From positions 30-64,029 of the forward strand of contig SVBA01000010.1 of assembly GCA_015059095.1 (NCBI GenBank): DNA of 64,000 bases, in the 5' to 3' direction. Positions 18,445 to 63,112 of the stretch are shown here, piece by piece. Every line of letters begins with the position of its first letter. Position 1 is the stretch's first letter. Source of the stretch: Erysipelotrichaceae bacterium (lineage in GTDB: Bacteria; Bacillota_I; Bacilli_A; RFN20; CAG-449). Made by a program: the position numbers and the translations under genes. The notes under the pieces were generated by a model. It searched no databases and was not told where the DNA came from. It saw nothing but the letters and a program-made list of their open reading frames with translations.

Positions 18445-18460
18445 GAAAGGAAGGTTAATT

Positions 18461-37141: not shown

Positions 37142-37157
37142 TAATAGTAAAACTATA

Positions 37158-37182: not shown

Positions 37183-37211
37183 AAATTATTTAAGAAAGGA
37201 GAATAAAATTT

Positions 37212-38666: not shown

Positions 38667-39577
38667 TGACTGAAACTTCAAAAAAGCCTACTCTAGGTTT
38701 AAAAGCTAAAAAAAGAATTGGCGTTATTTCTACATATGTAGTGTTAACTATTCTTTCAATTATTTGGATTATTCCTATTTTATGGATTATCCTTCACTCA
38801 TTTAGAGAAGAATACAATGCTTCTGGTGACTTTGTTGGAATCGTTGTATCTCACTATTTCCCAAAATCATATGGGGTAGAAAATTATAGATTATTATTTA
38901 CTGCTTCATATTATGGTGTTCAAAATGCATTTATTAAATGGTGGACAAATACATTAATCGTCGCAGTATTCTGTTGTCTTATTTCAACTTTCTTAGTATT
39001 ATCTGTTGGTTACTGTATGTCAAAATTACGTTTCAAAATGCGTAAGCCATTCATGAACTTATCAATGGTTCTTGGATTATTCCCAGGATTCATGTCAATG
39101 GTTGCTATTTATTATTTATTGAAAGCAATTGGATTAACACAAAATTTATTTGGTTTAATTTTGGCTTATTCTGCTGGTGCAGGTATGGGATTCCAAGTTC
39201 CAAAAGGATTCTTCGATGTTATCCCATCTTCTCTTGTTGAGTCTGCTAAATTAGATGGTTGTTCTAACTTTAAAATCTTTATTAGAATTATCTTACCATT
39301 ATCAAAACCAATTATTATTTACCAATTATTAATGGCATTTACAGGTCCATGGATGGACTTCATCTTTGCAAAAGTAATTATGGGTGATATGAACCCTGAT
39401 AAATGGACAGTTTCAGTTGGATTATATTCATTACTATTCGGTCCTCAAGCAGATACTTCATTGTTCTCACAATTCGCTGCAGGATGTGTATGCGTTGGTG
39501 TACCTATCGTATTATTATTTATGTTCTTACAAAAATACTATGTCGAAGGTGTTACTGCAGGTGCAGTTAAAGGCTAG
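38663..39577 (+). CDS. carbohydrate ABC transporter permease (MalG-like)
   Basis: Six TM segments. EAA loop (ESAKLDGCSNFKIFIRIILP). Start overlaps the upstream stop. Confidence 0.8.
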   Translation: MMTETSKKPTLGLKAKKRIGVISTYVVLTILSIIWIIPILWIILHSFREEYNASGDFVGIVVSHYFPKSYGVENYRLLFTASYYGVQNAFIKWWTNTLIVAVFCCLISTFLVLSVGYCMSKLRFKMRKPFMNLSMVLGLFPGFMSMVAIYYLLKAIGLTQNLFGLILAYSAGAGMGFQVPKGFFDVIPSSLVESAKLDGCSNFKIFIRIILPLSKPIIIYQLLMAFTGPWMDFIFAKVIMGDMNPDKWTVSVGLYSLLFGPQADTSLFSQFAAGCVCVGVPIVLLFMFLQKYYVEGVTAGAVKG

Positions 39578-39592
39578 AATACAAAAAGATAA

Positions 39593-39628
39593 TAGATTAG
39601 GCATTAATTTGTCTAATCTATTTTTTTA
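39593..39628 (+). terminator. hairpin with T-run after the permease genes
   Basis: TAGATTAG-gcattaatttgt-CTAATCTA followed by TTTTTTT. Confidence 0.6.
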
Positions 39629-39643
39629 AAAAAGGAGAGAGTT

Positions 39644-41353: not shown

Positions 41354-41470
41354 TTTTTTGTGTTATGAAATCGCTTTCTTTTTTATTGAGTAAGCGACTG
41401 ATTATTGTTACTTCGGCTAATTAATAATCGATAACCAGTTCATAAAATTTTGATAATAGGAGGATTTAAT

Positions 41471-42580
41471 ATGAACAAAAAATTATTGATAGGCTTATTA
41501 GCAGCTGTTTCAGTTGTTGGCCTAGTTGCTTGTGGCGGTAACTCAATTAGCGAACAACCTTCTTCTGGAAATCCAAGTAGTGAAGTCTCTGAAGACCCAA
41601 ACGATAAAGTTTTAGAAGATACATTACATCATTCATGGGTAATTCAAGGACAACATGAAATTAAAGATCCTGAAACAGGTGAATGGATTCAAAATGGCTG
41701 GAATGGTAAATCAGATGATTTATATGCTAAGAGTGCATTAACAGCTACTTCAATTAATGCAGTTAAAGAATTAGATGCTGATTTAGGTGCTGCATTAGCA
41801 AGCAAAAATGTTCAATACTTATACACTGGCGAAGTTCGTTTTGGTGTAATTGATGCAGGTTGGACATATAAATGCATTAAAGAAGATGGTAAAGTTTATG
41901 TTCGTAATGGTTCTTACGTATTCAAAGTATGTCCACTTACTTACGTAGAAGAAGACCAAGTCTTTGCAGAAGATGGTTGGTTACCAGATCCACATAAAGC
42001 ACACGTTGAATCATTAACTCCATCTACAGTTTGGTATCCAAAATGGCAAGAAGCTGCTGATGAAAATGGATTCTCATGGGCTAACGATGGTGGTTGTATT
42101 GCTCAAGCTGGTGTTTATACATTAGTAATCGCTAAATATAAAGAAGTTTCTGCTGCTGATGTTCCAGGTTATGGTGTTGCATTAGTATTAAAAGAAGCTG
42201 GTACAGCTGCAACTGAAGACGTTGAATACGTTCCACCAGTTGAAAACTCATTCGGCGTTGTTGGTACAATCAATAGCTGGGGTGGTACAGCTGATACAGT
42301 ATTAGTAAAAGCTGGTGAAGGTAAATTCGAAGCTACAGTTGAATTACCAGCTGGTGCTGAAATTAAAGTAAGAGCTAACAACGCTTGGGATGGCGATGCT
42401 GGTTTCGCTGCTTTAGAAGCAAATGAAAACTTTGAAGATAAAGGTGGAAACATTGGTTGTAAAGTTGCTGGTACTTATAAAATTACTTTAGAAGTTACTG
42501 AAACTCCATCTGAAACTGCAGGTGTTGCTCCAACAATCGATTGGTCAACAGCTAAAATTACAATTACTGCTGCTGCATAA
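41471..42580 (+). CDS. surface lipoprotein with a SusE/SusF-like C-terminal starch-binding domain
   Basis: Lipobox LVAC (SD TAGGAGGA before ATG 41471). The C-terminal FGVVGTINSWGGTADTVLVKAGEGKFEATVELPAGAEIKVRANNAWDGDAGF carries the KxRANNAWD motif of SusE/F-type starch-binding modules. GC-richer codon usage. Confidence 0.55.
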   Translation: MNKKLLIGLLAAVSVVGLVACGGNSISEQPSSGNPSSEVSEDPNDKVLEDTLHHSWVIQGQHEIKDPETGEWIQNGWNGKSDDLYAKSALTATSINAVKELDADLGAALASKNVQYLYTGEVRFGVIDAGWTYKCIKEDGKVYVRNGSYVFKVCPLTYVEEDQVFAEDGWLPDPHKAHVESLTPSTVWYPKWQEAADENGFSWANDGGCIAQAGVYTLVIAKYKEVSAADVPGYGVALVLKEAGTAATEDVEYVPPVENSFGVVGTINSWGGTADTVLVKAGEGKFEATVELPAGAEIKVRANNAWDGDAGFAALEANENFEDKGGNIGCKVAGTYKITLEVTETPSETAGVAPTIDWSTAKITITAAA

Positions 42581-45201: not shown

Positions 45202-45513
45202 TTAAATATTCTTTTTAATAAAATTAATAATAGATGGTTTTGGTAAAAAGCCGATGTTATGTGCCGAAACTTCGCCGTTGATTAGCAAATACATTGTTGG
45301 AATAGCACTAACTCCATATTCACTAGCAAGTTCATGAAATGAGTCAACATTAACTTTTAAAATTTGTACTTCAGGCATTTCTTCTGAAACTGCTTCAAGT
45401 TGAGGCGCTAACATTTTACATGGACCACACCATGGAGCCCAGAAGTCAATTAGTACAACACCCTTTTTTTTGAGTTCATTGAATTGTTCAATTGTTTCAA
45501 TATTAATAATCAT
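45202..45513 (-). CDS. trxA: thioredoxin
   Basis: VLIDFWAPWCGPCKMLAP...IPTMYLLINGEV is canonical TrxA. SD AAAGGAGGT before the MIINIE start. The ORF-track extension to 45543 is spurious. Confidence 0.9.
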   Translation of the reverse strand: MIINIETIEQFNELKKKGVVLIDFWAPWCGPCKMLAPQLEAVSEEMPEVQILKVNVDSFHELASEYGVSAIPTMYLLINGEVSAHNIGFLPKPSIINFIKKNI

Positions 45514-45532
45514 AAATTTACCTCCTTTCATA

Positions 45533-46369
45533 TTATACCACAAATAATGTTATTAAATAAATAATGATTAAGTGAAGTGGAAAAAATATATAAGATCCAT
45601 ATTTAAACCATTTTTTGTTATATCCTCGTTTACCATTATATAGTAAAATTGGAATTAAAGCAAATATTGCATATGCTTGAATAGAATTCATTTCAGTAAA
45701 TAGACCCTTATTATTCCAAATAGGATTAATAAAATAAATAATCATTGCAAATCCTAGAAATAAAATGCTTGATAGAGTATTGCGTAAACTTAATTTATAT
45801 GAAGAATTTTCAAATGTCTCTTCATCTAGATGATAAGATTTAATAATAAATTTGGAACTAAAATTGGATAATAAATAACCTATATAGAAAATCATAATAG
45901 TGCATAATCCATATAAATCATAATCACAATACAATGGAATTACTTCTAATGATATTAATAGAACATAAGTAATAGGAAGTATAGATAAAAACTTTTTCCA
46001 TAAAGGTTTGCTTTCTAAAAAATATATTGTTAATGCTCCCAAAAATAGGGTAGTAATTGGATTTCCAAAATAGTTACCAGTTGCTATATATAATAATAAA
46101 TCCATTGAAACTGCTAGTATTCCTAATCTAGATAAATACCTTATTTTATTAGAAGATTTTAGTATACCTTCAACAGTTAAAAAAGCAAAAATGATAAATG
46201 AAAATCTTCCTATAATTCTAAATATAGTTACTAGATTTATGCTAAAAAACGGCACCAAATCAATTTTGTCTACCATTTCAAAAACTACGATGATATGATC
46301 AAAAATCATCGATATAATACCAATAATCTTTAAATGAAATGCGTTTAAAAAATGTTGTTTATTTTTCAT
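45533..46369 (-). CDS. TraX-family membrane protein
   Basis: The N-terminal FHLKIIGIISMIFDHIIVVF fits the TraX-family signature (LK-I-I-a-x-I-s-M-x-x-DH-I). Multi-TM, 278 aa. Its start is coupled to the upstream CPBP stop (3-nt gap). Confidence 0.5.
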   Translation of the reverse strand: MKNKQHFLNAFHLKIIGIISMIFDHIIVVFEMVDKIDLVPFFSINLVTIFRIIGRFSFIIFAFLTVEGILKSSNKIRYLSRLGILAVSMDLLLYIATGNYFGNPITTLFLGALTIYFLESKPLWKKFLSILPITYVLLISLEVIPLYCDYDLYGLCTIMIFYIGYLLSNFSSKFIIKSYHLDEETFENSSYKLSLRNTLSSILFLGFAMIIYFINPIWNNKGLFTEMNSIQAYAIFALIPILLYNGKRGYNKKWFKYGSYIFFPLHLIIIYLITLFVV

Positions 46370-46372
46370 AAA

Positions 46373-47203
46373 TTAAAATAATCTAAATAATTCTTCTACT
46401 GGAATAAATGCTTGTACAAATGCGATAAAGTTATTTGTCATATGTGCAGTAATTGAAGTTGCAATTGAATCTTCTTTAGTATATGCAATAGCCATTACAA
46501 CACCTGAAATGATGTAAGAAGGAAGAGCAACAATTTCATTAATTACTTCTTGTTGAGTCATTTCTAAGAATGATCCATTTAAGAATGCTGAATGAATTAA
46601 TCCAAATAATGTTGATGAAATAACAATGCCAAGAATTTTATTCTTTTTAGCAATAGTTCCTGTTAAACATAAACGGTATGTGATTTCTTCGGTAATAGGT
46701 GCAAATAATACGACGCTAAAGAAGGAGATAACAGGCATTTGTGTAATCATATTTACCACTTCATTTTGATTTTGATTGGCTCCAAAATCAGGATAAATTA
46801 ATAATACGATCATGTTGTAAGCAATTGAAGAACCAAGTAAGATGCCACCATACATTAAACCTCTACCGAGTTTTTCTAAGCTTTTAAATTGCTTTAAAAA
46901 TTTAATAATAATCTTTTTTCCTAAAACAGCGAATAGAGAAATAAAAATAATTGCATAAGCAGCAAAGTTTATCCAACCAACTAAATTAGCTTCTTGTACT
47001 GGAGTTAAATTAGTAGGATCATCTATAAATAGTAAAGCAATTGTGCTAATAATTGTAGCGACTATACTTAATCCGATCCATCCTATAGCAATACAAGCTA
47101 ATGATTTAATTAAAGGTACATCAATTGTATTACTTTCTTTTTCGATAGGATCATTTGATTCTGGACTAGTCATATAATAAGGTTCATAATTGTTATCTTC
47201 CAT
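46373..47203 (-). CDS. CPBP-family (CAAX protease / Abi) intramembrane glutamic metalloprotease
   Basis: All three CPBP motifs are present: EEITYR (EExxxR), FGLIHSAF (FxxxH), HMTNN (HxxxN). SD GGAGGT before the ATG at 47203. Confidence 0.8.
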   Translation of the reverse strand: MEDNNYEPYYMTSPESNDPIEKESNTIDVPLIKSLACIAIGWIGLSIVATIISTIALLFIDDPTNLTPVQEANLVGWINFAAYAIIFISLFAVLGKKIIIKFLKQFKSLEKLGRGLMYGGILLGSSIAYNMIVLLIYPDFGANQNQNEVVNMITQMPVISFFSVVLFAPITEEITYRLCLTGTIAKKNKILGIVISSTLFGLIHSAFLNGSFLEMTQQEVINEIVALPSYIISGVVMAIAYTKEDSIATSITAHMTNNFIAFVQAFIPVEELFRLF

Positions 47204-47346
47204 AAAGATACCTCCATAATTAATATATATTGTAATGATTTATGGAAAATAATTCAAATTATTTTAAAAGGTTTGAAAAATATATATGAATATTTATTAC
47301 ATATATATTATAATATTGTAAATTAAGGTAAAGACAGGTGAAAATT

Positions 47347-50300
47347 ATGGAAGAAATTATTAGAACTTTAGTTGAAATGGATCCTAGTATGATTAGTCAA
47401 TATGTTGATTACTTCTTTTTAGCAATTGCTGCTGTTGGATTAATTGGCTTTATAATTGGCTTTATTAAAGGATTCTATAAAGAATCAACAACTTTTATTC
47501 TCACTGCTGTCTATTTTGTTTTACTAGCGTTTGTAAACAAATGGATATCAAGTGCGATTTATGAACTAGATATTACTAGTTTTGTACCTCAACTCCCTGA
47601 AGGGGTAAAAACGGTTGGGGATTACTTGAATTATATTTTATTAGATTTATGTGAAAAGAATGGAATAACCATTAGTAATTCTCAAGAGTTAGTAAATGCT
47701 ATTGTTTCTATAGCGTTAGCATTTATTAATTTAGTTGTATATCTTGTTTTACTACTCGCCGGTATTATTATTGTCGGGGTAGTAGATTTTATTGTATATT
47801 TTTTAATTGTAAGATTAATTGTTCCTAAATCAGCAAGAAAATATAGAAAGAAAAGATTATTTGGTGGAGGACTAGCGTTAATACGTTATGTAGTTGCATT
47901 CTCTTTACTATTATCTCCTTTCACTGCTATAGTCAACTCAACTGTTGGTAACTTGAGAGATGAAAATGGCAAAGTTCAAAGAAATGAACTCGATAATGAT
48001 TTCTATAATGCTTTAATGAATGTTTTAGAAGGATATAATAATTCAACTGTAGCTAAAGTTTTCTTTATTGTTGAAGATGAAGATGGTAGATCAATTGACG
48101 TAAGATTGATGGATTATATTACTAAATCTAAAATTGATGAAGAAACTGCTTTTTCTTTATACAATGAAATTGGCAATTTAGGTTCTTTAGCGATTGATGC
48201 TGTCTCTACTGGTTTTATTCAATCAACAAGTGCGATTGATTTAGCTTTATTATTACAAGCTGAATTTGTTGGACATGCGATTGATACTTTGGCTAAATCA
48301 ACTTTAGTACAAACAGTTTTATCTGTCGGTGTTACTTTAGCAGTTAACATGGATAAAGTTAAAGAATTTGTTGATTTGTCAAGTATTGATTTTATGCATG
48401 TGGATTGGAGTTCAACTTTAAATGCTGTTTCTACTGCTTATGAAGAATTATATGAAACTGGTTTAGTAGATGAAGTAATTGAAAATCCTGAAACTTTCTT
48501 AAATGATTTCTATCTTGATGGAGACCATGCTAATGGTATTAAAAATGCTCTAAAGAGTTTAGGAGATAATGAATTAATTTGTAAAATTATGCCTCCACTA
48601 ATTGCTTCTTTTATTTCTTCAATGAATAATCAATCTAGTGAAGAAAGTAATGGAGCAAAACGTTCTGATAATTTTGAAATTCCTGATGCTTTACAAGACG
48701 CGGATACATATAAAGATATTAGATGGGGTAGCGAACTAGCTAATTTATATGAGGTATTAGAAAATTTATCAAAACAATATTATGGTTATGAAAATGAACA
48801 TTTGACATTTAATATGATTAATACTTTACAACCAGATATTATTTTAAATGCTTTATTTGGTACAGGTATTGATTTTTCTAAAGAAGATGACACTTCTTAT
48901 AAGCAAGAATATGAACGCAACGTATTTGTTTATGGTGGAGAATATATTAATGAAGAAGTTACTCATAAACTTCCTGGTATTAAGAATATTTTAGGTGTTG
49001 ATACTTCTTCTACAGCAGGTTTATTGAACCTTCAAATCATTGATGTAATGTTTGAAAAAGATTTATTTAATGATTTTATTAGTTTATTAGACTTAAATCA
49101 ATTATTAAGTCTTGATGCAAATAAAATAGACTTGAATGAAGAAGTAGTAGATGTTGTTTCTAATTGGAAAAAAGTAGATTGGCAAAATGAACTTTCTGCA
49201 ATTGTGGATGTAGTATGTCCTATTATGAAATTAGTTGGTATTATTGGTGGGGAAAATGCTACTGTTAGTGAAGCAAAAAGAGCAGCATCTGAACCAGAAA
49301 TTGATTTAGATACAATTTTAGGTGATGATAGTTTGAATTGTTTAAAACGTGTAACTGATGTTTTGGTTGATTCACAAATCTTCAATGAAATTCTTCCAGA
49401 TGTATTAGAAGTTTATACTGATGATATGCAAGATGAATTAATTGAAGGTCTAGCTCTATCTGATTTGAACTTTACATATTTTGCATCTAATGATGATTCA
49501 ATGGTTAAAGAATTAAGAAGTTTCATTGATGATGTTGATACAATTAATGAAGATTTATCTTCATTATTAGATGATATCACTGGAGAGAATGCGATTGATG
49601 CATTGGTTAGTGATTGTGCAAAGGATCAATCTGTATTAGGTGAATTATTAAAAATTATTAAAGATAATCAAATCTTAAATAAACCTCTTACTCCAGAAGA
49701 AAAGTTAAATAATGTAAATACGACATTTACTAATGTTATGATTGGATTACTTTCTAATGGCGCTAATCCAGACAATACAATGAATATTTATAATATGACT
49801 GATGGTATGATAGAAATTGAAAAAGATACTATCGTTAATTTTGATAAGAATCCTGCTGGTTGGGATAATGAAATTGATGGAATCATTGGATTTATTGGGT
49901 CATTAAAAGATCCTAATGGAACAGAAGAACAAGTTATTCTAGACTTCGTATCTGGTAAAACAAGTGAAGATTTTGATTTGACAAATGAAATTTTTGGCTG
50001 TGGCAATGAAATTGAAAGAATTTTCGCAAGCGTCGATGATTCAGTAATTTTAAAAGAAGCATTCCCAAAAACTTTTGAAGGTTTACTTGGTGATACTTTT
50101 AAAGATGTAATCGGTGAAAATCCTGATTTCTATAATGTCGATAGTTGGGCTAGTGAAGGTCATTATTTTAACTTATTATTAGGTAGTATTGATGATTTAA
50201 GAGAAGGCGGACAAGATTTATCTTCTATTGATTGGATGAATGTTGAGGAAGCAAAATTAACTAATATATTAACTTCTTTATACAACACTCAATCAGTTGG

Positions 50301-53300
50301 TGGATCTTATGTAGAAGATTCTAGAGAAAATGGTATATTCCATAGCATGTTAAAAAATATTATTTCTCAAGCTTTAGAAAATTTAGAGATTAATATTGAA
50401 AGTGATGTAGATAATGGCATTATCGTATTAGAAGAAGATGTAATTAATAGAGACTTTGATATCGATAATGAAGAAAAAGTAATTTATAAAAAGGTTAGTG
50501 GAACTAATGTTTATGTCTCATGGTTAGGTGATAGTGAACATGACTATGATGGTGAAATTAAAAACATTGTTTCAATGATTGGGGAAGTTAAAGATCTTAC
50601 TGAAGGCGCAAGCATTGAAGATATGCAATCAATCTTAGAAAAGGTTAATAATTGCTATATTTTAAGAAATACTTTAGGTTTAATTATCGATTCTAAAACT
50701 GAATCTTTATTAAACGGTGAAGATGAATTAATGAGTGAGTTTATTGATCGTTCAGACTTTGAAGTATTCCACAAAGAAAACTTATCAATGACTCCTTATG
50801 AAATCGTTGATGAAGAATTGATTGAAGGAGATCCTTCTATAGTTATTAAAACGAGAGAAGATGAAATTAATGCTCGTCAAGAAGAATTAAATAGTATCGT
50901 AGATATTATTAATGATGCTCAAGATATTGGTGATAAACTAAATCAAGAAACTACAGGAGAAACTCAATTTGATCCTATTAAAGAAATTTTAGTTAATAAA
51001 ACATTATCAACTTCTGTAACAAATGAACAATCTAGTATTGAAGCAGTTTTAAATAATATGCATAATTCGGAAATCTTCAATGCGGTTGAATCGTTTACAA
51101 ATAATGATGAAAGAACATCATTAACTGCATTTGAATATTTCTTCCAATATGTTATGTCAAATGATGCATTAAATTCAGAAGAAGATAATGATGGAGATGG
51201 TCAATTAGATAAATTATTAAATGCTCCAACTGATCAATACATTTACTCTATTACAGAAGAAAATGGATGGATTAATACAGAAACTCAAGTTGGTGAAATT
51301 ACTAACTTTAATAATGGTTTATATAACTTTATTGAAAATCCATTAATCGACATTGTATTAGATACATCATTAGACTTTATTGATGCGGTAGAAGGTACAT
51401 TAAAAGATGATCTAGGAAATCCATTAACTCCAATTCAAGATATGTTATTAGATTTACATAGTTCTAAGATTTTAGACTTATCTACTGGTAAAATTATTGA
51501 TGATTATATTTTAAAGCAATTATTAAAAGCTCTAGATTATGATTATGAAACTGAATCAAATAACAAATATCATAGTGATAAAAAAGTATTTGATAATAGA
51601 GTTTCTAAGATTGACCAATTTATTACTGATCCAAATGCCTTAAAATTAGCATTAGTATCATTTGGTTGGGAATTATCAGAAGTAAGTGGAATTACTGAAG
51701 ATAATATGATGGAATATGTTTGGAGAAATGAAGGTAAGAGCATTGAATCATTAATCGGACATTTAAATGATTTTAAATTTGATAGTTTTGATATGAATGA
51801 TATTGATTCCGATTTCATTGACGAAGTAACTATTTCATTAAAGAATTCATTTGGATTAAATTATTTGGAAACTACTTCAAGTGAATATAATAATTCTACT
51901 TATCCATGTAGAAGTGCATACCAATTATTAGTTATTAAAATTACTGATACTTCGGTAGATGCGATTGAAGATGCATTAGGATTAGAAGATAGTGAAAGAA
52001 CAACAACTTCTGAAATGATTAAAGATTATGATCATGAAAGAAATATTATCGTTTCATTAATTGATGAATATAACAATGTTAAAGATATTATTGAAAAACC
52101 AGATATGGATAGTTTCTCTATTGGAAAATATAGTGAATATGATGGTTCTTCAAAGGATGATTTAGATAAAATTGATGGATTAATTGAAATTTTAGATGAT
52201 TCAGAAGTATATAATTATGGATATGAAAGAACAAGTACTTCACTAGAAAGAAATATCTATGAACGCATGATTATGAAATTAGTTAACACTGTTAAGACAG
52301 GATTTGAATCATCAAATATTGTAACTCCTGAAGAAAGTGAATATACATCAAGTTATGATATCGCTCAAGGTGAATATGATTCTGAAAAACAAATTACATT
52401 TAATATCGCTCGTCGTTATAAAGATGTTGAAGAATTATTAGAAGGCGGAGATATTGTTAATGATGTAAATGATGATTCAAGAAATCATATTGAAGGATTA
52501 GTTGGTGAATTAGAAGATTCTAAAGTATTCAACTATACTCAAATTGGTGTTGGTCATAAAGAAAATGATAATTCAGATCATTCTTACTATGAACATATCG
52601 TTATTTATATGATTGAAAAGACTAATGACGCATTTGAAGAAGCTCTTGAATTAGATACTACTAATTCTCAAGAAGATAAGATTATTTCTTATAATAAAGA
52701 ATTAGATGTTATCTTGGATGTAATGCAAGCATATCAAAGTGTAAGTTCTAATTTTGAAAATTCGAATTCTATTGATTTTGATGCTATTAGTGATAAAGAA
52801 GCATTTATGTTATCAATGGAAGATGTATTAAAACCTCTTTATTCTTCAGATGTTTACCACTATGTTAGAAATAATGTTAGAACTTCCAAAGAAGGAGATA
52901 ATCAATTATCTAACTTATCAATCTTTGAACAAATGATTTATACTATGTTATCTTCTTCAAGTGAAGTAATTGAGAACTTACATATTGAACATACTGGTAT
53001 TAACTATTCTGAAGTTGTTTCTTCTGATAAAGATGTATTGAACTTAAGAATTAGAGAAGTATCTAATTCTGATTTGAATAATGAAGAAGTTCGTTGGTGG
53101 GATTATGAAGTTAGTGAAGATACAATGCTAGGTGAAGTTACTAAGATTAGACATATTACAGGTGAAGATTTTGGTAGTGCACTTGATACTACTAATGGTG
53201 TTGATTTAACAGGATTAATTAGAGATATTGAAAATCCTTTAAGCGAAGATGGATTGTTAAATTTAATTAATAAATCATTTATTTTACATGATACTGTACC

Positions 53301-54042
53301 AAATATTATTGAAAAATACATCGATAGCCATGAAGCTGAAGAAGAAGATGGTATTGCAGAAGAAGATCAAGCAATTGCAGTTAATGATTTATTATTCTTA
53401 AAAGCAATTCCTGAAAATGGATATCATGATTACTCTAATACAAGAGGCTATGCAGGTGAACATGTTGATACTTATAGAATTGATAATCATATTGGTTATA
53501 CATTCTTAGATAAAGTTGAACATTGGGATAATGATTTATATCATGTTTCTAAATTAATCGAGTTATTAGAAAACTTAAAAGAAGCAGGTGAAGATATTAA
53601 TCAATTAGAAGGTAATTTCTTCCAATACTTATTTGATCATCTTGCTCAAACTGAAACATATCATATGATTGTTCCTCAAATTACAATCTCAATCTTAAAT
53701 GATTATTTAAGTGTTGATATTTTTGGTACACCTTATGGATTAGGTTCTTTCATTAATGGTCATGATGATGTTGAAAAATTATCTACATATTTCTATATTA
53801 TCGATAATCATGCAATGTATTTATTAGATGAATCTAAATACTATGAAGAAGATGAATTAGGAAATGTCTTAGATTATACTAATGAAACTCACCATAATGA
53901 AGGTTTAGGTATCGATATGTTTGTTAAGTATTTAACTACATTAAATAGTGAAAATAAACCTTCTAGTTCAGTTTATGCTTTAGGTGGATTAATGATGGAA
54001 AATTATGACGCACACCAAATTGATGGAGATCCACTCGTTTAA
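47347..54042 (+). CDS. giant (2231 aa) membrane-anchored, highly acidic hypothetical protein with degenerate internal repeats
   Basis: Uninterrupted ORF. SD AGGTGA lies 6 nt before ATG 47347. The first 200 or so aa carry about 5 TM helices. The remaining 2000 or so aa are D/E/N/S/I-rich with no recognisable catalytic motif and show a recurrent degenerate unit around [DS]S[EKQ][VI][FY]N[YAE] (for example DDSEVYNYGYER, EDSKVFNYTQIG, YSSDVYHYVRNN, VDSQIFNEILPD, HNSEIFNAVESF). Confidence 0.8.
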   Translation: MEEIIRTLVEMDPSMISQYVDYFFLAIAAVGLIGFIIGFIKGFYKESTTFILTAVYFVLLAFVNKWISSAIYELDITSFVPQLPEGVKTVGDYLNYILLDLCEKNGITISNSQELVNAIVSIALAFINLVVYLVLLLAGIIIVGVVDFIVYFLIVRLIVPKSARKYRKKRLFGGGLALIRYVVAFSLLLSPFTAIVNSTVGNLRDENGKVQRNELDNDFYNALMNVLEGYNNSTVAKVFFIVEDEDGRSIDVRLMDYITKSKIDEETAFSLYNEIGNLGSLAIDAVSTGFIQSTSAIDLALLLQAEFVGHAIDTLAKSTLVQTVLSVGVTLAVNMDKVKEFVDLSSIDFMHVDWSSTLNAVSTAYEELYETGLVDEVIENPETFLNDFYLDGDHANGIKNALKSLGDNELICKIMPPLIASFISSMNNQSSEESNGAKRSDNFEIPDALQDADTYKDIRWGSELANLYEVLENLSKQYYGYENEHLTFNMINTLQPDIILNALFGTGIDFSKEDDTSYKQEYERNVFVYGGEYINEEVTHKLPGIKNILGVDTSSTAGLLNLQIIDVMFEKDLFNDFISLLDLNQLLSLDANKIDLNEEVVDVVSNWKKVDWQNELSAIVDVVCPIMKLVGIIGGENATVSEAKRAASEPEIDLDTILGDDSLNCLKRVTDVLVDSQIFNEILPDVLEVYTDDMQDELIEGLALSDLNFTYFASNDDSMVKELRSFIDDVDTINEDLSSLLDDITGENAIDALVSDCAKDQSVLGELLKIIKDNQILNKPLTPEEKLNNVNTTFTNVMIGLLSNGANPDNTMNIYNMTDGMIEIEKDTIVNFDKNPAGWDNEIDGIIGFIGSLKDPNGTEEQVILDFVSGKTSEDFDLTNEIFGCGNEIERIFASVDDSVILKEAFPKTFEGLLGDTFKDVIGENPDFYNVDSWASEGHYFNLLLGSIDDLREGGQDLSSIDWMNVEEAKLTNILTSLYNTQSVGGSYVEDSRENGIFHSMLKNIISQALENLEINIESDVDNGIIVLEEDVINRDFDIDNEEKVIYKKVSGTNVYVSWLGDSEHDYDGEIKNIVSMIGEVKDLTEGASIEDMQSILEKVNNCYILRNTLGLIIDSKTESLLNGEDELMSEFIDRSDFEVFHKENLSMTPYEIVDEELIEGDPSIVIKTREDEINARQEELNSIVDIINDAQDIGDKLNQETTGETQFDPIKEILVNKTLSTSVTNEQSSIEAVLNNMHNSEIFNAVESFTNNDERTSLTAFEYFFQYVMSNDALNSEEDNDGDGQLDKLLNAPTDQYIYSITEENGWINTETQVGEITNFNNGLYNFIENPLIDIVLDTSLDFIDAVEGTLKDDLGNPLTPIQDMLLDLHSSKILDLSTGKIIDDYILKQLLKALDYDYETESNNKYHSDKKVFDNRVSKIDQFITDPNALKLALVSFGWELSEVSGITEDNMMEYVWRNEGKSIESLIGHLNDFKFDSFDMNDIDSDFIDEVTISLKNSFGLNYLETTSSEYNNSTYPCRSAYQLLVIKITDTSVDAIEDALGLEDSERTTTSEMIKDYDHERNIIVSLIDEYNNVKDIIEKPDMDSFSIGKYSEYDGSSKDDLDKIDGLIEILDDSEVYNYGYERTSTSLERNIYERMIMKLVNTVKTGFESSNIVTPEESEYTSSYDIAQGEYDSEKQITFNIARRYKDVEELLEGGDIVNDVNDDSRNHIEGLVGELEDSKVFNYTQIGVGHKENDNSDHSYYEHIVIYMIEKTNDAFEEALELDTTNSQEDKIISYNKELDVILDVMQAYQSVSSNFENSNSIDFDAISDKEAFMLSMEDVLKPLYSSDVYHYVRNNVRTSKEGDNQLSNLSIFEQMIYTMLSSSSEVIENLHIEHTGINYSEVVSSDKDVLNLRIREVSNSDLNNEEVRWWDYEVSEDTMLGEVTKIRHITGEDFGSALDTTNGVDLTGLIRDIENPLSEDGLLNLINKSFILHDTVPNIIEKYIDSHEAEEEDGIAEEDQAIAVNDLLFLKAIPENGYHDYSNTRGYAGEHVDTYRIDNHIGYTFLDKVEHWDNDLYHVSKLIELLENLKEAGEDINQLEGNFFQYLFDHLAQTETYHMIVPQITISILNDYLSVDIFGTPYGLGSFINGHDDVEKLSTYFYIIDNHAMYLLDESKYYEEDELGNVLDYTNETHHNEGLGIDMFVKYLTTLNSENKPSSSVYALGGLMMENYDAHQIDGDPLV

Positions 54043-54045
54043 TTT

Positions 54046-54648
54046 ATGTATAGAATTTTAGAAAGATATCAAAGTGAGATAGTCATCAATAAATCCAGAT
54101 TTATATCTGTTATGATGCCTATCTCCACTGATAGTGAAGTAAAAGAGATTTTAAAAGATTTAAATAAAGAGTATCCTAAGGCTACACACTATTGTTATGC
54201 TTATCGAGTAAAAGGAAAAGAAAAATCTTCTGATGATGGTGAGCCTAGTGGTACAGCAGGAAGACCGATGCTTGAATTTTTAATTAATAATGAACTTGAA
54301 AATATCCTTGTTGTTGTAATAAGATATTTTGGAGGCATCAAATTAGGTGCTGGTGGTCTATTAAGAGCGTATGTAGATTCTTGTAGAAGCGTTTATAGTG
54401 TTAGTAAAATTTATAAAGTAGAAAAACACAGTTTATATAGTTTAGTAGTAGATTATAAATATTATGATGCTTTAAGAAACTACTTAATTCATCAAGATGG
54501 AAGTATCAAAGATACTTCATACGATGAAGAAATTACGATTATTTATTTATCATCTTTAATTAACAAAGATGATTTATTAGAAATCACTAATGGTAATATT
54601 AAAATTGAATCATTAGGTGTACAAGAAGTATTTATAGAAAGGAAATGA
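54046..54648 (+). CDS. yigZ: IMPACT/YigZ-family protein
   Basis: KSRFISVMMPISTDSEVKEIL...ATHYCYAYRV...DDGEPSGTAGRPML...GGIKLGAGGL matches the UPF0029/IMPACT N-terminal domain. Confidence 0.8.
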   Translation: MYRILERYQSEIVINKSRFISVMMPISTDSEVKEILKDLNKEYPKATHYCYAYRVKGKEKSSDDGEPSGTAGRPMLEFLINNELENILVVVIRYFGGIKLGAGGLLRAYVDSCRSVYSVSKIYKVEKHSLYSLVVDYKYYDALRNYLIHQDGSIKDTSYDEEITIIYLSSLINKDDLLEITNGNIKIESLGVQEVFIERK

Positions 54649-55466
54649 TAATTATGGGTTGTAATCATGATTGTGCCTCTTGTAGTGGAAACTGTAATGG
54701 GGGAGAGATTCAAAAATTAATTTTAAATGATAAATCTTCAATTAAATGTATCATTGGAGTTTTATCAGGCAAAGGAGGAGTAGGTAAATCTTTAGTTACA
54801 AGTTTAGCTGCTTCTAAGTTAGCGCAACTTGGCTATAAAGTTGGTGTATTAGACGCTGATATTACTGGTCCAAGTATGGCAAGAACTTTTGGTATAAAAG
54901 ATAAAGCATGGCAAAAAGAAGGATTAATTTTGCCATATACTACTCAAAAAGGTATTAAGGTAATTTCATCTAATATGTTATTAGAAAATGATGATGATCC
55001 TATCTTATGGAGAGGATCAATGATTTCATCATTAGTTTCTCAATTTTATAAGGACGTTCTTTGGGAAGAATTAGATGTATTATTAATCGATATGCCTCCA
55101 GGAACAGGTGATGTAAGTTTAACTACTTTCCAAATGATACCTCTTGATGGATTAGTAATTGTTACTACTCCTCAAGAATTAGTCTCTATGATTGTAAAAA
55201 AATCAATTAATATGGCAGAAACAATGAACATTCCTTTATTAGGTGTAGTAGAAAATATGTCTTATGTTGTATGTCCTACATGTAATGAAAGTATCTACAT
55301 TTATGGAAATAAAGATAATCAAGAATATTATGGCCATCCAATTTTAGGAAAAATTCCTTTTGATGGAGAATTAACTAGATTAGTTGATGGTGGTAAAGTA
55401 GAAGATTTTAATAAAGATTATGTAGATGAACTTGTTAATCAAATTCAAGGAAAGATGAGGGAATAA
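54645..55466 (+). CDS. mrp: Mrp/NBP35-family Fe-S cluster carrier ATPase (ApbC-like) with a Cys-rich N-terminal leader
   Basis: Deviant Walker A GVLSGKGGVGKS. CPTC motif (VVCPTCNESIY). N-terminal MGCNHDCASCSGNCNGG. Confidence 0.85.
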   Translation: MIIMGCNHDCASCSGNCNGGEIQKLILNDKSSIKCIIGVLSGKGGVGKSLVTSLAASKLAQLGYKVGVLDADITGPSMARTFGIKDKAWQKEGLILPYTTQKGIKVISSNMLLENDDDPILWRGSMISSLVSQFYKDVLWEELDVLLIDMPPGTGDVSLTTFQMIPLDGLVIVTTPQELVSMIVKKSINMAETMNIPLLGVVENMSYVVCPTCNESIYIYGNKDNQEYYGHPILGKIPFDGELTRLVDGGKVEDFNKDYVDELVNQIQGKMRE

Positions 55467-55468: not shown

Positions 55469-56713
55469 ATGAGTAATTATGTAAATAATAGACAAAAATT
55501 ATATAAAGAAATTCCAGATAATTCATTAGTTGTGTTATATTCTGGAGCATTAAAGCAATGTTCTGCTGATGAAAATTATCCTTTTAAAGTCAATACCAAT
55601 TTCTATTATATGACTGGTATTGATCAAGACAATGCTTACTTAGTAGTTACAAAAGTAAGAGGTGAAATTGAAGAACATTTATTTATTTATGAAAATGACC
55701 CAATCAAAGTTAAATGGATTGGTGCATATCTTTATCCTAATGAGGCTAAAGAAATTTCTGGAGTTGAAAATATTCATTTTATTAAGGAATTTGATGCTTA
55801 TTTATTAAAACAAGCAAAAAGAAAAGGTATTAAAAATATATGTTTAGATCTAGAAAAATCACCTTTTGAAGGACAAGTTGACTTTGGTAAAGTTTTAAAA
55901 GATAAGGTAAATGCTTATTGTTATGATAAAAAGATTGTTGATATCTATCAAACTATTACTCTAATTAGAGGTGTTAAAGAAGATTGGGAGATTGAAATTT
56001 ATCAAAAGGCTGTTGATACAACTAGACTTGCTTTAGAGGAAGTAATGAAAGAATTACCTTCTCTTGAATATGAATATCAAGTTCAAGGTTTATTTGAATA
56101 CCAAATTAAAAAGATTTCTAATGCTGGAGTTTCTTTTGAAACAATCGCTGCTTGTGGTAAGAACGCTGCTATTTTACATTACAGAACTAATGATGCTAAA
56201 TTAGAAGGTAAAAATATGATTTTACTAGATTTAGGAGCAGAAGTAGGTAAATATCATGCTGATATTACTAGAACTTATCCAATTAAAGGTAAATATGGTG
56301 AATTAGAAAAGAAAATTTATCAAAGCGTATTAGATTGTAATAAATATATTATTTCTATTATTAAACCAGGTGTTACTATTATGGATTTACAAAAAGAAAC
56401 AGTATCTTTCTTAGCAAATGAATGTTTAAAACATGGTTTAATTAGTGAAAAAGAAGGTATTAGAAATCATTATTTCCATGGTATTTCTCATCATATCGGG
56501 TTAGATACTCATGATCCACATCCTAGATATGCTGGTACTTTAGTTCCTGGAATGATCATTTCTGTTGAACCAGGTTTATATTTTGAAGATTTAGGCATTG
56601 GTGTTAGAATTGAAGATGATATTCTTGTAACTGAAGATGGTTGTAAAAACTTATCTAAAGATATCATAAAAGAAATCGATGAAATTGAAGAATTCATGGC
56701 AAAATTTAATTAA
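55469..56713 (+). CDS. pepP: M24B Xaa-Pro aminopeptidase
   Basis: Pita-bread-fold metal ligands. DLGAEVGKYHADITRTYP, HGISHHIGLDTHD, VEPGLYF, IRIEDDILVTEDG. Confidence 0.85.
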   Translation: MSNYVNNRQKLYKEIPDNSLVVLYSGALKQCSADENYPFKVNTNFYYMTGIDQDNAYLVVTKVRGEIEEHLFIYENDPIKVKWIGAYLYPNEAKEISGVENIHFIKEFDAYLLKQAKRKGIKNICLDLEKSPFEGQVDFGKVLKDKVNAYCYDKKIVDIYQTITLIRGVKEDWEIEIYQKAVDTTRLALEEVMKELPSLEYEYQVQGLFEYQIKKISNAGVSFETIAACGKNAAILHYRTNDAKLEGKNMILLDLGAEVGKYHADITRTYPIKGKYGELEKKIYQSVLDCNKYIISIIKPGVTIMDLQKETVSFLANECLKHGLISEKEGIRNHYFHGISHHIGLDTHDPHPRYAGTLVPGMIISVEPGLYFEDLGIGVRIEDDILVTEDGCKNLSKDIIKEIDEIEEFMAKFN

Positions 56714-56788
56714 TAAAATCACCTTTGGGTGATTTTTTCTTAATAATTGTTTAATATTATTTATGTATTATTAGTAAGGAGGTAGTCT

Positions 56789-58636
56789 ATGAAAAAAAGT
56801 ATTTTATGTATTATTTCTTTAGTATTATTATCTAGTTGTTCTTTAATTTCTCCAAATAATGGTAGTAATTTTGATCCTTGGGATAAACTAGGCGGAGGAG
56901 GAATTGCTAGTGTAGGTAGTGAAGAAAATATTTCTATTAATGATTATGATAATATGTCTTCTTCTTTTTCTGATATTCAATTAGATGAATCTATTAGTGA
57001 AAGTAATATTGTTAATTTTAACGATTTATCTTCTCTTCCTAATGGAGTAAGTTTATCTAGTTCAACTTTAACAATTTCTTTAGGTGGAACTTATTTACTT
57101 AAAGGAGAATTTATTGGTCAGTTAGTAGTCGATAAGTGTAATGATAAAGATGTTAGAATTATTTTTGATAATGTAAAAATAACTTCTAAAGGTAGTACTG
57201 CTCCTATCACTTTTAAAAAGACTACTGCTCATAGAGTATTAACTTTAAAAGAAGGTACAACTTCTTATATTGAAGATAATATTTTAAATAGTGGAGTAAA
57301 TAGTGATGAAAGTGTTATTGAAGTAAAATCTTGTCCTTTTACTATTAATGGAAAAGGAAAATTAATGATTAATGCAAAAGGTGATAATTCTAATGGTATT
57401 GAGGCTAATGATACTTTAAATATCTTGAATTCGAATCTAGAAATAAATGCAAATAATCATGGTATTAAAGTAAATAATAAAATCGTTATTGAAAATAGTA
57501 CTATTAAGATTAATGCTAAAATGGATGGAATTAAAACAGATATTAATCCTGTTTCTTTAGAAGAAGCTAAAACATTAGCAAATTCGCTTGAAAACGGCTT
57601 TATTTCAATCAAAAATACATCACTAGATATTAATTCATCAGATGATGGAATATCGTCTAATTCTTTTATTTATATCGAAAATGATTTGCAAGATATTATC
57701 AATATTACTACAAATGGAGGAGCACCTACTTCTAATAAGAATTATGGTAGTGATTCTTTAAATGGAAAAGGAATTAAAGTAGAAGGTATATCGTATTTCA
57801 ATGGAACTACTGAAACAAAAATTGCATCTACTCATGAAGATAATTATTCTTTAATTATTAATGGTGGAACGTATTCTATTAATTCAAATAATGATAGTAT
57901 TTCTTCAAGTGGAAATACTTTAATTGAAGATGGTAAATTTAGTATAAATGCTGGCGATGATGGAATTCATAGTGAATATACTAGCGTTATTCGTAATGGT
58001 GAAATTAATATTTTAAGTAGCTATGAAGGTATTGAAGGATCAGGCGTAGAAATATTTAATGGAATTATTAATGTTAACTCATATGATGATGGAATTAATG
58101 CTTCTAATTCTGAAGTTAAAGATTATGATTTCCACATTTATATTAATGGAGGAAATATTAGTGTTGATTCTATGGGTGATGGAGTTGATAGTAATGGTTG
58201 GATTAAAATGGATGGTGGAACACTATTAATTAATGGTCCAACTAGTGGAATGAATGGATCATTAGATACTGATAAAGGATTTTTATTAACTAATGGTAAT
58301 TTAATTGCAGTTGGTTCTAGGGGGATGGTTGAAACTCCTTCTTCTAATTCGACTCAATGCTATATAAATGTTAATTTATCTTCGATTGTTGAAGATTCAA
58401 TTATAGTAAAAGATAAGTCAGGTAAAGAAATTATTAATGTTACGCCAAATAAAAAGTATCAATCAATTGTTTTATCAAGCGAAGAATTTATTAAAGGTGA
58501 AACTTATTCTATAGTAATTGGTAGTAATCAATATGAAGCAACATTAACTTCAATTGGTACTGCATTAGGCACAAATAGTTCTGGAAATCAAAATCAAGGT
58601 CATATGCCAGGAGGACCTGGAGGAAGACCTAGATAA
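56789..58636 (+). CDS. surface lipoprotein with parallel beta-helix repeats (putative adhesin / carbohydrate-binding domain protein)
   Basis: Lipobox LSSC. Many repeats of the DGI / NGI.x.N type (DNSNGIEANDTLNILNSNLEINANNHGIKV; DDGISSN; DDGIHSE; DDGINAS; GDGVDSN) typical of right-handed beta-helix proteins. Gly/Pro-rich C-terminus. Confidence 0.55.
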   Translation: MKKSILCIISLVLLSSCSLISPNNGSNFDPWDKLGGGGIASVGSEENISINDYDNMSSSFSDIQLDESISESNIVNFNDLSSLPNGVSLSSSTLTISLGGTYLLKGEFIGQLVVDKCNDKDVRIIFDNVKITSKGSTAPITFKKTTAHRVLTLKEGTTSYIEDNILNSGVNSDESVIEVKSCPFTINGKGKLMINAKGDNSNGIEANDTLNILNSNLEINANNHGIKVNNKIVIENSTIKINAKMDGIKTDINPVSLEEAKTLANSLENGFISIKNTSLDINSSDDGISSNSFIYIENDLQDIINITTNGGAPTSNKNYGSDSLNGKGIKVEGISYFNGTTETKIASTHEDNYSLIINGGTYSINSNNDSISSSGNTLIEDGKFSINAGDDGIHSEYTSVIRNGEINILSSYEGIEGSGVEIFNGIINVNSYDDGINASNSEVKDYDFHIYINGGNISVDSMGDGVDSNGWIKMDGGTLLINGPTSGMNGSLDTDKGFLLTNGNLIAVGSRGMVETPSSNSTQCYINVNLSSIVEDSIIVKDKSGKEIINVTPNKKYQSIVLSSEEFIKGETYSIVIGSNQYEATLTSIGTALGTNSSGNQNQGHMPGGPGGRPR

Positions 58637-59176: not shown

Positions 59177-59983
59177 TTATTTAATAAATATTATACAAAA
59201 TAAGGCTAATAGAAGTAAATAATAAGAAAAGTAATATAATTTATCTTTATTAATAATTCTTTTTAGAAGTTTCATACTTAATAATGTAAAAATAAAACTA
59301 AATAAAATTCCTATTAAATAATAATAAATAGGGAAATTTAGGGAGTAATTATTATTAATTAATTTTATTAGTTCTAATAGAAATGAAGATAGTGTAATTG
59401 GTATAAAAAGTAAATAAGAGTATTTAAAAGTTGACTTACTATCTAATTTAGATAGTTTTCCTCCTAGTAATGTACTTCCACTTCTTGATATTCCTGGAAA
59501 TAATCCAATTACTTGAGTTAATCCAATAATTATAGAATCAATATAGGTCATATTAAATAATGTTTTATGGGAATTATTGAATTTACAGAAATATAAAATT
59601 ATTGAGGTAATAAGAAAAAAGATAGGAAGATAAGTAATATTTGAGAGATGATTTTCAATAAAAGGACTAAGAAAGATTCCAAATAAACCTGTAATTAATG
59701 TAGAAATAAATAAAAAAATTATTATATTAAAACTTTGTTTTTTATTTTTATCTTTATTGTATAGATAAATAACGCTATCAGATAATAGAATTTTTATATC
59801 CTTAAAATAGTAAATTATAACTGCAAATAAGGATCCTAAATGAAGAAAAATTTCTAGTATTAATCCTTCTTCTTTGATTCTTAAAAGATGTTTTATTAAG
59901 ATTAAATGACCACTACTAGAAATGGGAAGTATTTCACTGATACCTTGAATTATACCTAAAATGATGATTTTAAAAATTTCCAT
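59177..59983 (-). CDS. uppP: undecaprenyl-diphosphate phosphatase
   Basis: The N-terminal GIIQGISEILPISSSGHLIL is the signature UppP/BacA motif. Eight TM helices. Confidence 0.9.
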   Translation of the reverse strand: MEIFKIIILGIIQGISEILPISSSGHLILIKHLLRIKEEGLILEIFLHLGSLFAVIIYYFKDIKILLSDSVIYLYNKDKNKKQSFNIIIFLFISTLITGLFGIFLSPFIENHLSNITYLPIFFLITSIILYFCKFNNSHKTLFNMTYIDSIIIGLTQVIGLFPGISRSGSTLLGGKLSKLDSKSTFKYSYLLFIPITLSSFLLELIKLINNNYSLNFPIYYYLIGILFSFIFTLLSMKLLKRIINKDKLYYFSYYLLLLALFCIIFIK

Positions 59984-62992: not shown

Positions 62993-63112
62993 AAAATACA
63001 TCTCCTTATAATTCTTAATTTACTAATTTATTTTAACATAAAATAAACAATAAGCAAAATGTTTATTTCATAAATATAAAGAAAACTCCATATCTTATTA
63101 TTGGGTGAAAAT

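Follow-up and report, generated by a model that had tools for sequence, protein, structure and literature searches.

What kind of protein is encoded by the giant gene at positions 47347-54042 of the forward strand in a 64,000-nucleotide stretch of DNA from an Erysipelotrichaceae bacterium (contig SVBA01000010.1; the whole stretch is called the window hereafter), and on which side of the membrane does its long acidic part lie? A sequence-only reading of the window had presented the product as an ORFan, acidic, anchored in the membrane and containing degenerate internal repeats. The present analysis places the protein in a sizeable family, and we consider, with a probability of about 0.6, that it is a membrane-tethered extracytoplasmic helical scaffold, one of the giant envelope proteins that form an undescribed family in uncultured Bacilli.

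The giant gene and its family

The frame runs over 2231 codons without a stop codon. The start assigned mechanically is a GTG at 47338; the ATG at 47347 is the supported start, because the sequence AGGTGA lies 6 nt upstream, the residue M1 is invariant across the alignment of homologues and the block GGTGAAAATT-ATG, in which GGTGAAAATT directly precedes the start codon, is conserved in two homologous loci (L001 and L002). The single continuous open reading frame (ORF) preceded by a Shine-Dalgarno sequence, as described in the sequence-only reading, is therefore retained. That reading had also named an assembly chimera as the finding that would overturn it. Copies covering 100% of the length were detected on independent contigs with 99% (P0001), 79% (P0002) and 52% (P0003) identity, and a chimera or a pseudogene is thereby ruled out.

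The number of relatives depended on the search. A word-indexed search recovered just 12 relatives, the word-indexed profile search added no new member of the family, and 22 relatives were obtained when the distant member P0101 was used as query. The exhaustive search, in which a hidden Markov model (HMM) of residues 1-1200 was compared with 1.84 billion cluster representatives (clusters at 50% identity), yielded 659 representatives at E≤1e-3, of which 346 remain at E≤1e-10 and 210 at E≤1e-30. Their length lies between 1500 and 3000 aa in almost every case, and most align to the profile positions ~8-1100. The term ORFan consequently has to be abandoned. All of the 20 clusters that were looked up originate from metagenomes or metagenome-assembled genomes (MAGs), and the only names found among them are "CvpA family protein [Bacillales bacterium]" and "hypothetical protein [Bacilli bacterium]". 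The matches in genome collections come from four MAGs labelled as uncultured Bacillales, Erysipelotrichaceae bacterium or Bacilli bacterium. Because of these 659 clusters, of the metagenomic origin of every cluster looked up and of the uninformative names, the giant protein is a member of a sizeable, taxonomically restricted and uncharacterised family of uncultured Bacilli.

The length of the relatives varies from 1370 aa (L006) to about 3000 aa. The core conserved across the family consists of the transmembrane (TM) domain and about 1100 additional residues, and the distal repeat region grows and shrinks. The alignment of the close relatives contains about 60 invariant positions, many of which are Trp, Gly, Pro or Tyr. 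In an alignment of 184 members, the positions conserved in at least 80% of sequences are the glycines of the TM domain, Arg164, the juxtamembrane group Pro191, Asn197, Tyr230, Ser233 and Asp251 (88-97%), and the recurring Ser and W..E of the repeats; no catalytic or metal-binding constellation was found among them.

The amino-acid composition of the giant protein is dominated by Leu (10.2%), Asp (9.7%), Glu (9.2%), Ile (9.1%), Ser (8.1%) and Asn (7.9%). Acidic residues represent 19% of the sequence and Lys and Arg together just 6.7%, giving a net charge of -273 and a pI of 4.13; Cys accounts for 0.36%, against a mean of 1.2% in the window. All listed members of the family are likewise acidic (D+E 10-17.6%, K+R 3.5-10.5%). 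Searches of Pfam and NCBIfam with the whole protein, with pieces of 600-830 aa and with the repeat consensus gave no match up to an E-value of 10, in agreement with the description of an acidic, membrane-tethered giant lacking a recognisable catalytic domain. A regular-expression search of the protein detected neither a lipobox nor an LPXTG-like motif beyond residue 190, and the C-terminal end displays no hydrophobic segment and no anchor signal. A lipoprotein or a sortase-anchored LPXTG protein is rejected on these grounds, as the sequence-only reading had proposed.

Membrane domain and orientation

The hydrophobic segments of the giant protein are located at residues ~18-45, 49-68, 113-163 and 171-200, and the AlphaFold2 (AF2) model contains helices at 13-41, 43-72, 113-158 and 170-200. 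The polytopic N-terminus described beforehand is confirmed by these data; its "about 5" TM helices become four, or five if the residues 113-158, modelled as one long helix, form a hairpin. The same region of ~200 aa had been left without identity. Its characteristic motifs are G34xxxG38xxxG42, K41-G-F-Y-K-E46 and the basic loop P160-KSARKYRKKR-L171. The three glycines are invariant in close relatives, and among the 184 members Gly38 is conserved in 82% and Gly42 in 90% of sequences.

Several comparisons point to the CvpA (Colicin_V) family. The Pfam family PF02674 is matched by 6 of 33 diverse N-terminal domains of the family (best E-value 7.2e-6) and is the only Pfam family matched by more than one of them. 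The relative P0015, labelled 'CvpA family protein' by NCBI, aligns over residues 24-203 with the positions 3-125 of the 144 positions of this profile, with 20.8 bits for a cut-off of 29.3. The 33 domains were also compared by hhalign with an alignment of eight proteobacterial CvpA sequences taken from plasmid and chromid records: the profiles match with an E-value of 1.3e-4 and a probability of 54% over 48 columns covering TM1, the loop and TM2 only. The same comparison with the single CvpA of Escherichia coli was uninformative (probability 6%). In the alignment, K41-G42-F43-Y44-K45-E46 corresponds to R22-G23-F-x-x-E27 of CvpA, and conserved glycines, a GXXXG motif and the motif R-G-F-x-x-E are features of the CvpA family (Warr et al., bioRxiv 10.1101/2020.09.25.314492). 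Since the window protein itself lies below every Pfam threshold, we describe its ~200 N-terminal residues as probably CvpA-related, a divergent Colicin_V domain, and do not claim a demonstrated membership.

The resemblance to CvpA (PF02674; E. coli b2313) comprises a polytopic N-terminal domain of ~200 aa with about four TM helices, a GxxxG-rich TM1 with a (K/R)-G-F-x-x-E motif behind it, a basic loop, a last helix whose start is rich in glycine, and a C-terminal segment that varies in length and is predicted to be outside the membrane. The differences are the total length of CvpA (160-200 aa), to which the giant adds a helical-repeat domain of 2000 aa, and the longer external loop 2 (~45-55 aa) and TM3 (~45 aa) of the giant. 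CvpA-family proteins are poorly understood and matter for bile resistance and gut colonisation of enteric pathogens. One relative gave a faint NCBIfam match to 'MarP family serine protease' through its TM part (E-value 0.031), and the TM part of MarP is a domain that we take to belong to the CvpA family. MarP of Mycobacterium tuberculosis (Rv3671c), with four TM helices and a periplasmic serine protease domain, shares with the giant the layout of an N-terminal membrane module followed by an exported C-terminal domain (PMC4992679). The giant differs from MarP by the absence of a protease domain or a trypsin-like motif, and by an appended domain about ten times larger and built of repeats.

The orientation of the domain was deduced from the loop charges of 33 relatives. 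The mean net charge is -1.0 for the N-terminal tail, +0.8 for loop 1, -3.2 for loop 2 and +5.9 for loop 3, the loop directly before the last TM helix (P-KSARKYRKKR-L in the window protein). According to the positive-inside rule and because of its charge of +5.9, loop 3 is predicted to be cytoplasmic and the last helix (residues ~174-197) to export the remainder of the protein. This prediction is independent of the helix count, since the residues 113-158 lead to the same outcome as one helix or as a hairpin. It agrees with the layout of MarP and with CvpA, whose C-terminus of variable length is predicted to be periplasmic (Warr et al., bioRxiv 10.1101/2020.09.25.314492). On this basis the acidic domain of 2000 aa probably lies outside the cell.

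The acidity of the giant is shared by other proteins of the window. Among the proteins whose pI is lower than about 4.6 are two solute-binding proteins, one CBM26 protein and one Cthe_2159 carbohydrate-binding protein. The giant has in common with these four exoproteins a high D+E content, a low K+R content and a low Cys content, which supports the exported location independently of the loop charges. The recognisable exoproteins (9730-11487, 25144-27543, 35726-37141 and 56789-58636) have pI values of 4.05-4.53 with low K+R, and the cytoplasmic enzymes of the window have pI values of about 5-7 or higher. The exoproteome of the organism appears to be systematically acidic. Because the other predicted exoproteins of the window are also acidic, the polyanionic character of the giant may be this general signature and no special polyanion function. 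The data speak neither for nor against the cation sink and the surface fibril suggested by the sequence-only reading. Genes for MreB (31212-32192, reverse strand) and BacA/UppP (59177-59983, reverse strand) are also present; they suggest a rod-shaped, probably walled cell and not a mollicute-like one devoid of a wall, a point that bears on the place an exported giant protein would occupy.

A cytoplasmic scaffold, in which the acidic domain would be attached to the membrane from within, with a cytoskeleton-like or organising role, was one of the options raised by the sequence-only reading. Alpha-solenoid or HEAT-like architectures are typically intracellular, and the weak Foldseek matches described below are all to cytoplasmic eukaryotic scaffolds. 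The partners encoded in the same operon (YigZ, Mrp and PepP) are cytoplasmic proteins, the export of a domain of 2000 aa is costly, and the topology of the E. coli CvpA is unproven. Against this location stand the mean charge of +5.9 of loop 3, which places the domain outside with four helices and with five, the low Cys content (0.36% versus 1.2%) together with an acidic, low-K+R composition resembling that of the window exoproteins, and the related architecture of MarP, which exports its C-terminal domain. The charge distribution and the composition make a cytoplasmic location unlikely.

Fold and repeats of the predicted ectodomain

Two AF2 models, of residues 1-1200 and 1330-2231, were obtained with mean local confidence scores (pLDDT) of 73.6 and 72.3 and global scores (pTM) of 0.54 and 0.66, respectively. 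Apart from a few hairpins, both consist almost wholly of helices. Neither model matched a structure of the PDB at E<0.02 with Foldseek. The best E-values (0.023 and 0.067) were obtained with CAND1, HUWE1, importins and TBCD, at a TM-score of ~0.1, and other weak neighbours are helical bundles of ~90 aa. Sequence searches of the PDB with the profiles of residues 1-1200 and of the TM domain found no match except one designed helical bundle. The likeness to HEAT/ARM solenoids (CAND1, importins) and to the rods of talin, vinculin and alpha-catenin is that of a general all-alpha repeat architecture shared with non-significant top neighbours; no significant structural superposition on solved HEAT/ARM proteins and no match to an HMM of these repeat families was detected.

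The loosely periodic unit [DS]-S-x-[VI]-[FY]-N...YE..I..M noticed in the sequence corresponds to the core of a repeat of ~100 aa, as established by hhalign and by an HMM. The motif [DSNHKEG]S.[IVL][FYLI][NHKDT], a pattern chosen post hoc, occurs 8 times where 1.7 occurrences are expected. With hhalign, residues 1491-1625 align with residues 1715-1840 (probability 96%, E-value 1e-9), and adjacent pairs of repeats align at offsets of ~105-110 aa. The repeat HMM was seeded with four units and iterated over the family, and converged on a unit of ~100 aa with the consensus ...L..L.NSKIFN...TVFEQLIYKIL...W.GW.GEIDKLV.VL..L. It detects 7-8 copies in the window protein at an independent E-value (i-E) below 0.01 and 839 copies in 190 relatives (median 4, maximum 9); on shuffled controls it found none. 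In the head part that precedes the repeats, only faint traces are visible (weak HMM matches at 421-475 and 563-625). The elongated helical-repeat architecture suggested earlier is in agreement with both models, even though the fold matches to HEAT/ARM proteins and ~90-aa bundles are only weak.

Several candidates are dismissed by these data. A disordered low-complexity polyanion is ruled out by the sequence conservation, the predicted folding and the invariant Trp, Gly, Pro and Tyr positions. No RTX nonapeptide, Ig-like, cadherin-like or beta-repeat domain was detected with Pfam or NCBIfam, and the almost all-helical models together with this result rule out a toxin, an RTX protein or a beta-rich adhesin; confident homology to a known adhesin or an RTX-like protein had been named by the sequence-only reading as a finding that would overturn it. 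It is well supported by the models and the repeat analysis that the ectodomain is folded, almost entirely alpha-helical and built of repeats, with no known homologue.

In its working principle the giant, although unrelated, would come closest to Ebh of Staphylococcus aureus, for which Tanaka and coworkers reportedly described in 2008 a helical-bundle rod structure. Ebh and Embp of the staphylococci resemble the giant as very large, membrane-tethered, extracytoplasmic and mainly alpha-helical proteins (the location of the giant being predicted), with helical-bundle repeats of ~100-126 aa in variable number. They are structural proteins of the envelope or the surface, and Ebh affects the properties of the envelope. 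The giant has no match to FIVAR, GA or DUF1542 in Pfam. Its anchor is N-terminal and polytopic, whereas that of Ebh is a single C-terminal TM helix; its N-terminus is the polytopic domain in place of a YSIRK signal peptide. The gene for Ebh is accessory and variable, whereas that of the giant belongs to the syntenic core.

This analogy leads to a second alternative, in which an exported Ebh/Embp-like rod would serve mainly as an adhesin or surface fibril, fastening the cell to other cells, to the mucus or matrix of a host, or to particles of the diet, for instance starch. The giant size, the membrane tether and the variable number of ~100-aa repeats (1370 to ~3000 aa in total) are typical of surface adhesins, and Ebh itself is a giant surface protein with a documented TM domain and signal sequence (PMC4856396). 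The window holds in addition a starch and maltodextrin set (CBM26 protein, alpha-amylase, GH77 enzyme and solute-binding proteins). On the other hand, no adhesive, lectin, CBM, Ig-like, FIVAR/GA or collagen-like domain was recovered with Pfam or NCBIfam. The gene is a single-copy syntenic core gene whose product is conserved family-wide over its first ~1100 residues, whereas rapid evolution and differences between strains are usual for adhesins; the distal part is the most variable and yet carries no distinct 'tip' domain. Adhesion appears improbable as the main role of the protein.

The reading that we prefer is that of the membrane-tethered extracytoplasmic scaffold. A conserved and real gene, apparently at the head of a tight operon and divergent from the CPBP-traX-trx genes, would encode a protein whose first ~200 residues form a membrane domain of four or five helices related to CvpA. 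The basic loop would be cytoplasmic and the last helix would act as a signal-anchor, so that the acidic, Cys-poor domain of 2000 aa would be exported, as charge and composition suggest. This domain is predicted to be folded and helical, with a conserved 'head' followed by at least 7-8 degenerate helical-bundle repeats of ~100 aa, the number of which differs between relatives (1370 to ~3000 aa). Most likely it works as a scaffold in the form of a rod or solenoid on the outside of the membrane, and it might then space or coat the envelope or give other exoproteins a platform for docking. Through the CvpA-like module the giant may be coupled to envelope homeostasis, and the CPBP protease, TraX and thioredoxin would be candidate processing or partner proteins. 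A scaffold role is proposed because no conserved residue looks catalytic and the conserved W..E and S.(I/V)(F/Y) are structural.

Several observations weigh against this interpretation. For the membrane domain, the window protein does not match PF02674 even at E≤10, every match to this profile among the relatives lies below the gathering score, and the profile-profile match to CvpA is limited to TM1-TM2. The topology is based on the positive-inside rule and on composition; that of the E. coli CvpA is itself predicted only, and a functional N-terminal sfGFP-CvpA fusion is hard to square with a periplasmic N-terminus (bioRxiv 10.1101/2020.09.25.314492). Residues 615-636 are moderately hydrophobic and form a buried helix in the AF2 model, though formally a membrane segment may lie at this position. 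The AF2 alignments comprised 10-11 sequences only, with medium confidence and an unreliable inter-domain geometry. The relatives all belong to one bacterial class, and the synteny described below may be partly inherited and not the sign of a functional coupling. Finally, the function is inferred from the architecture only, in a family with no characterised relative.

Gene neighbourhood, promoter region and remainder of the window

The features of the locus are listed in Table 1.

Table 1. Features of the giant gene, its product and its neighbourhood (positions in the window unless a homologous locus is named; aa, residues of the giant protein)
Feature	Position	Strand	Evidence or remark
Thioredoxin	45202..45543	-	mechanical ORF of 113 aa from a TTG, overlapping the end of traX
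TraX-family membrane protein	45533..46369	-	Pfam; conserved in relatives
CPBP (Rce1-like) glutamic intramembrane protease	46373..47203	-	kept in all relatives whose contig reaches upstream
Inverted repeat AATATATATG-N11-CATATATATT, 10-nt arms, candidate operator	47279..47309	.	divergent promoter region
Shine-Dalgarno AGGTGA	47335-47340	+	6 nt 5' of the ATG of the giant gene
CDS of the giant protein (2231 aa + stop)	47347..54042	+	open frame; full-length homologues on independent contigs; family of 659 clusters
N-terminal membrane domain, aa 1-200, probably divergent CvpA/Colicin_V	47347..47946	+	hydropathy, AF2, PF02674 matches of relatives, hhalign, loop charges
Juxtamembrane and 'head' part, aa 201-759, helical, best-conserved stretch of the family	47947..49623	+	conservation in 184 members, AF2
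Repeat copy, aa 760-855	49624..49911	+	repeat HMM, i-E 2.7e-10
Repeat copy, aa 970-1084	50254..50598	+	repeat HMM, i-E 7.8e-11
Weak repeat copy, aa 1091-1194	50617..50928	+	repeat HMM, i-E 0.0067
Repeat copy, aa 1229-1323	51031..51315	+	repeat HMM, i-E 7.9e-12; NSEIFN at aa 1240
Repeat copy, aa 1487-1580	51805..52086	+	hhalign, probability 96%; repeat HMM, i-E 4.3e-11 at iteration 6
Repeat copy, aa 1605-1693	52159..52425	+	hhalign, repeat HMM; DSEVYN at aa 1618
Repeat copy, aa 1714-1798	52486..52740	+	hhalign, repeat HMM; DSKVFN at aa 1724
Repeat copy, aa 1823-1913	52813..53085	+	repeat HMM; SSDVYH at aa 1833
C-terminal helical region, aa 1914-2231, small beta-hairpins, low-confidence stretch	53086..54039	+	AF2 C-terminal model
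yigZ/IMPACT-family gene	54046..54648	+	3 nt after the giant stop; directly downstream of the giant in all relatives
mrp, Mrp/ApbC-type Fe-S carrier ATPase	54645..55466	+	4-nt overlap with yigZ
pepP, Xaa-Pro aminopeptidase (M24), last gene of the operon	55469..56713	+	2-nt gap after mrp
Terminator-like hairpin and T-run, probable operon end	56715..56746	+	hairpin itself 56715-56736
Subgroup promoter regions with the TTATAAGT/ACTTATAA palindrome	L003 2083-2181; L007 5452-5546; L008 5905-6000		

The giant gene, yigZ, mrp and pepP look like a four-gene operon headed by the giant gene: the only terminator-like hairpin of this run is found after pepP, and in L010, L011 and L014 the stop codon of the giant gene overlaps the start of yigZ. 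The gene mrp is present in the closer relatives and missing from the distant ones, and pepP is kept downstream wherever the contig extends (L001-L003, L010-L014). As reported previously for the window, the CPBP, TraX and thioredoxin genes are divergent from the giant gene. Thioredoxin homologues at the other loci contain 101-104 aa; because the mechanical ORF contains 113 aa, translation probably begins at a codon inside it.

The synteny was examined in the loci L001 (downstream half only), L002, L003/4, L005, L006, L007, L008, L010, L011/12, L013 and L014. The order Trx<-TraX<-CPBP <> giant->YigZ->(Mrp)->PepP was observed in each of 12 independent relatives, as far as their contigs reach, including relatives only ~20-25% identical to the window protein that come from much more GC-rich genomes. 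The genes flanking this conserved core differ between loci.

The two divergent units are separated by 143 bp (47204-47346). The inverted repeat first described there with arms of 8 bp does exist, and its arms are longer, with 10 nt each. A perfect TATAAT, read by eye, abuts it at 47309-47314 with a weak -35 element, and a scan of the forward strand of the intergenic region for the sigma-70 consensus found no above-chance site. The palindrome is a candidate operator because it abuts the TATAAT, the position expected for an operator. An identical 33-nt palindrome block is located upstream of the 52%-identical homologue (L001, promoter region 1-64) and a variant upstream of a 55% homologue (L002, promoter region 6183-6322). 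A more distant subgroup has another conserved palindrome, TTATAAGT-N3/4-ACTTATAA, adjoining the start of the CPBP gene in L003, L007 and L008, and in L010 a gene for an HTH_3 regulator sits between the two divergent operons. These subgroup-specific palindromes are candidate operators.

The gene context is the basis of a third alternative. CPBP proteases process membrane-proximal substrates and TraX N-acetylates F-pilin. The CPBP protease might cleave the giant near S-P191-F-T-A-x-V-N197 and TraX modify it, a surface polymer being released or re-anchored, with the CvpA-like part in charge of export or 'production', as for colicin V. The divergent CPBP-TraX-Trx pairing is invariant in the relatives with upstream sequence, the shared promoter region contains conserved palindromes, and Pro191, Asn197, Tyr230, Ser233 and Asp251 are at the top of the family conservation. 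These relatives, however, are all of one class, so the synteny may be simply inherited, and literature searches on CvpA with the giant and on TraX with CAAX proteases found nothing relevant and no link of TraX, CPBP and thioredoxin. Such a maturation pathway is more doubtful than the two preceding alternatives.

Equally doubtful is the idea that the six genes trx-traX-CPBP and giant-yigZ-pepP constitute a dedicated envelope system defining a clade of uncultured Bacilli. In it, a CvpA-like membrane channel or sensor would carry an extracellular series of talin-like helical bundles, used as a mechanical or chemical antenna or as a processed surface polymer matured by CPBP and TraX in the manner of F-pilin; if true, it would provide the first functional context for CvpA-type domains and for a chromosomal Gram-positive TraX.

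Elsewhere in the window, the starch and maltodextrin utilisation set is distributed over 25144-27543 (reverse strand), 35726-41236 and 60176-61750 (both forward). It comprises the CBM26 protein (25144-27543; 799 aa, D+E 20%, pI 4.05), a solute-binding protein with an ABC permease (35726-38666), an alpha-amylase (39644-41236) and a GH77 4-alpha-glucanotransferase (60176-61750). The pyruvate formate-lyase (PFL) gene pflB is split (16414-18697, forward strand): an ORF of 676 aa (16414-18444) ends within the glycyl-radical domain, and an overlapping ORF of 86 aa in another frame (18437-18697) holds the remainder with the radical motif RVSGYAV. This corresponds either to a sequencing or assembly frameshift or to a genuine frameshifted or split gene. 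The PFL-activating enzyme, a radical SAM protein, is encoded at 15389-16105 and AdhE at 28429-31038 (reverse strand). The starch set, PFL and AdhE point to a fermentative starch-degrading organism. A Sel1-repeat protein of 819 aa (11569-14028, forward strand) contains many repeats (Pfam E-value 3e-60) and is basic (pI 8.8). Six ORFs of 227-405 aa have no Pfam match at E≤1e-5 (2952-3695, 3802-5019, 4880-5869, 27717-28400, 41450-42580 and 61832-63001); that at 41450-42580 is acidic (pI 4.48) and that at 2952-3695 is acidic and Cys-rich (2.8% Cys).

MAGs often contain hypothetical envelope proteins of giant size, but the present one stands out as a well-defined target through its conservation across the family, its probable link to CvpA and its fixed pairing with CPBP, TraX and thioredoxin. 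The present family offers the basis for a Pfam or NCBIfam model, which would annotate hundreds of giant genes now called "hypothetical". The invariant pairing with CPBP, TraX and thioredoxin provides a concrete and testable hypothesis of envelope biogenesis for these Bacilli. If the extracytoplasmic scaffold is correct, a clade of uncultured Bacilli invests 5-9 kb of a small genome in an undescribed exported helical giant, which would represent a new ectodomain family, a new type of repeat and a striking new architecture for the CvpA family.

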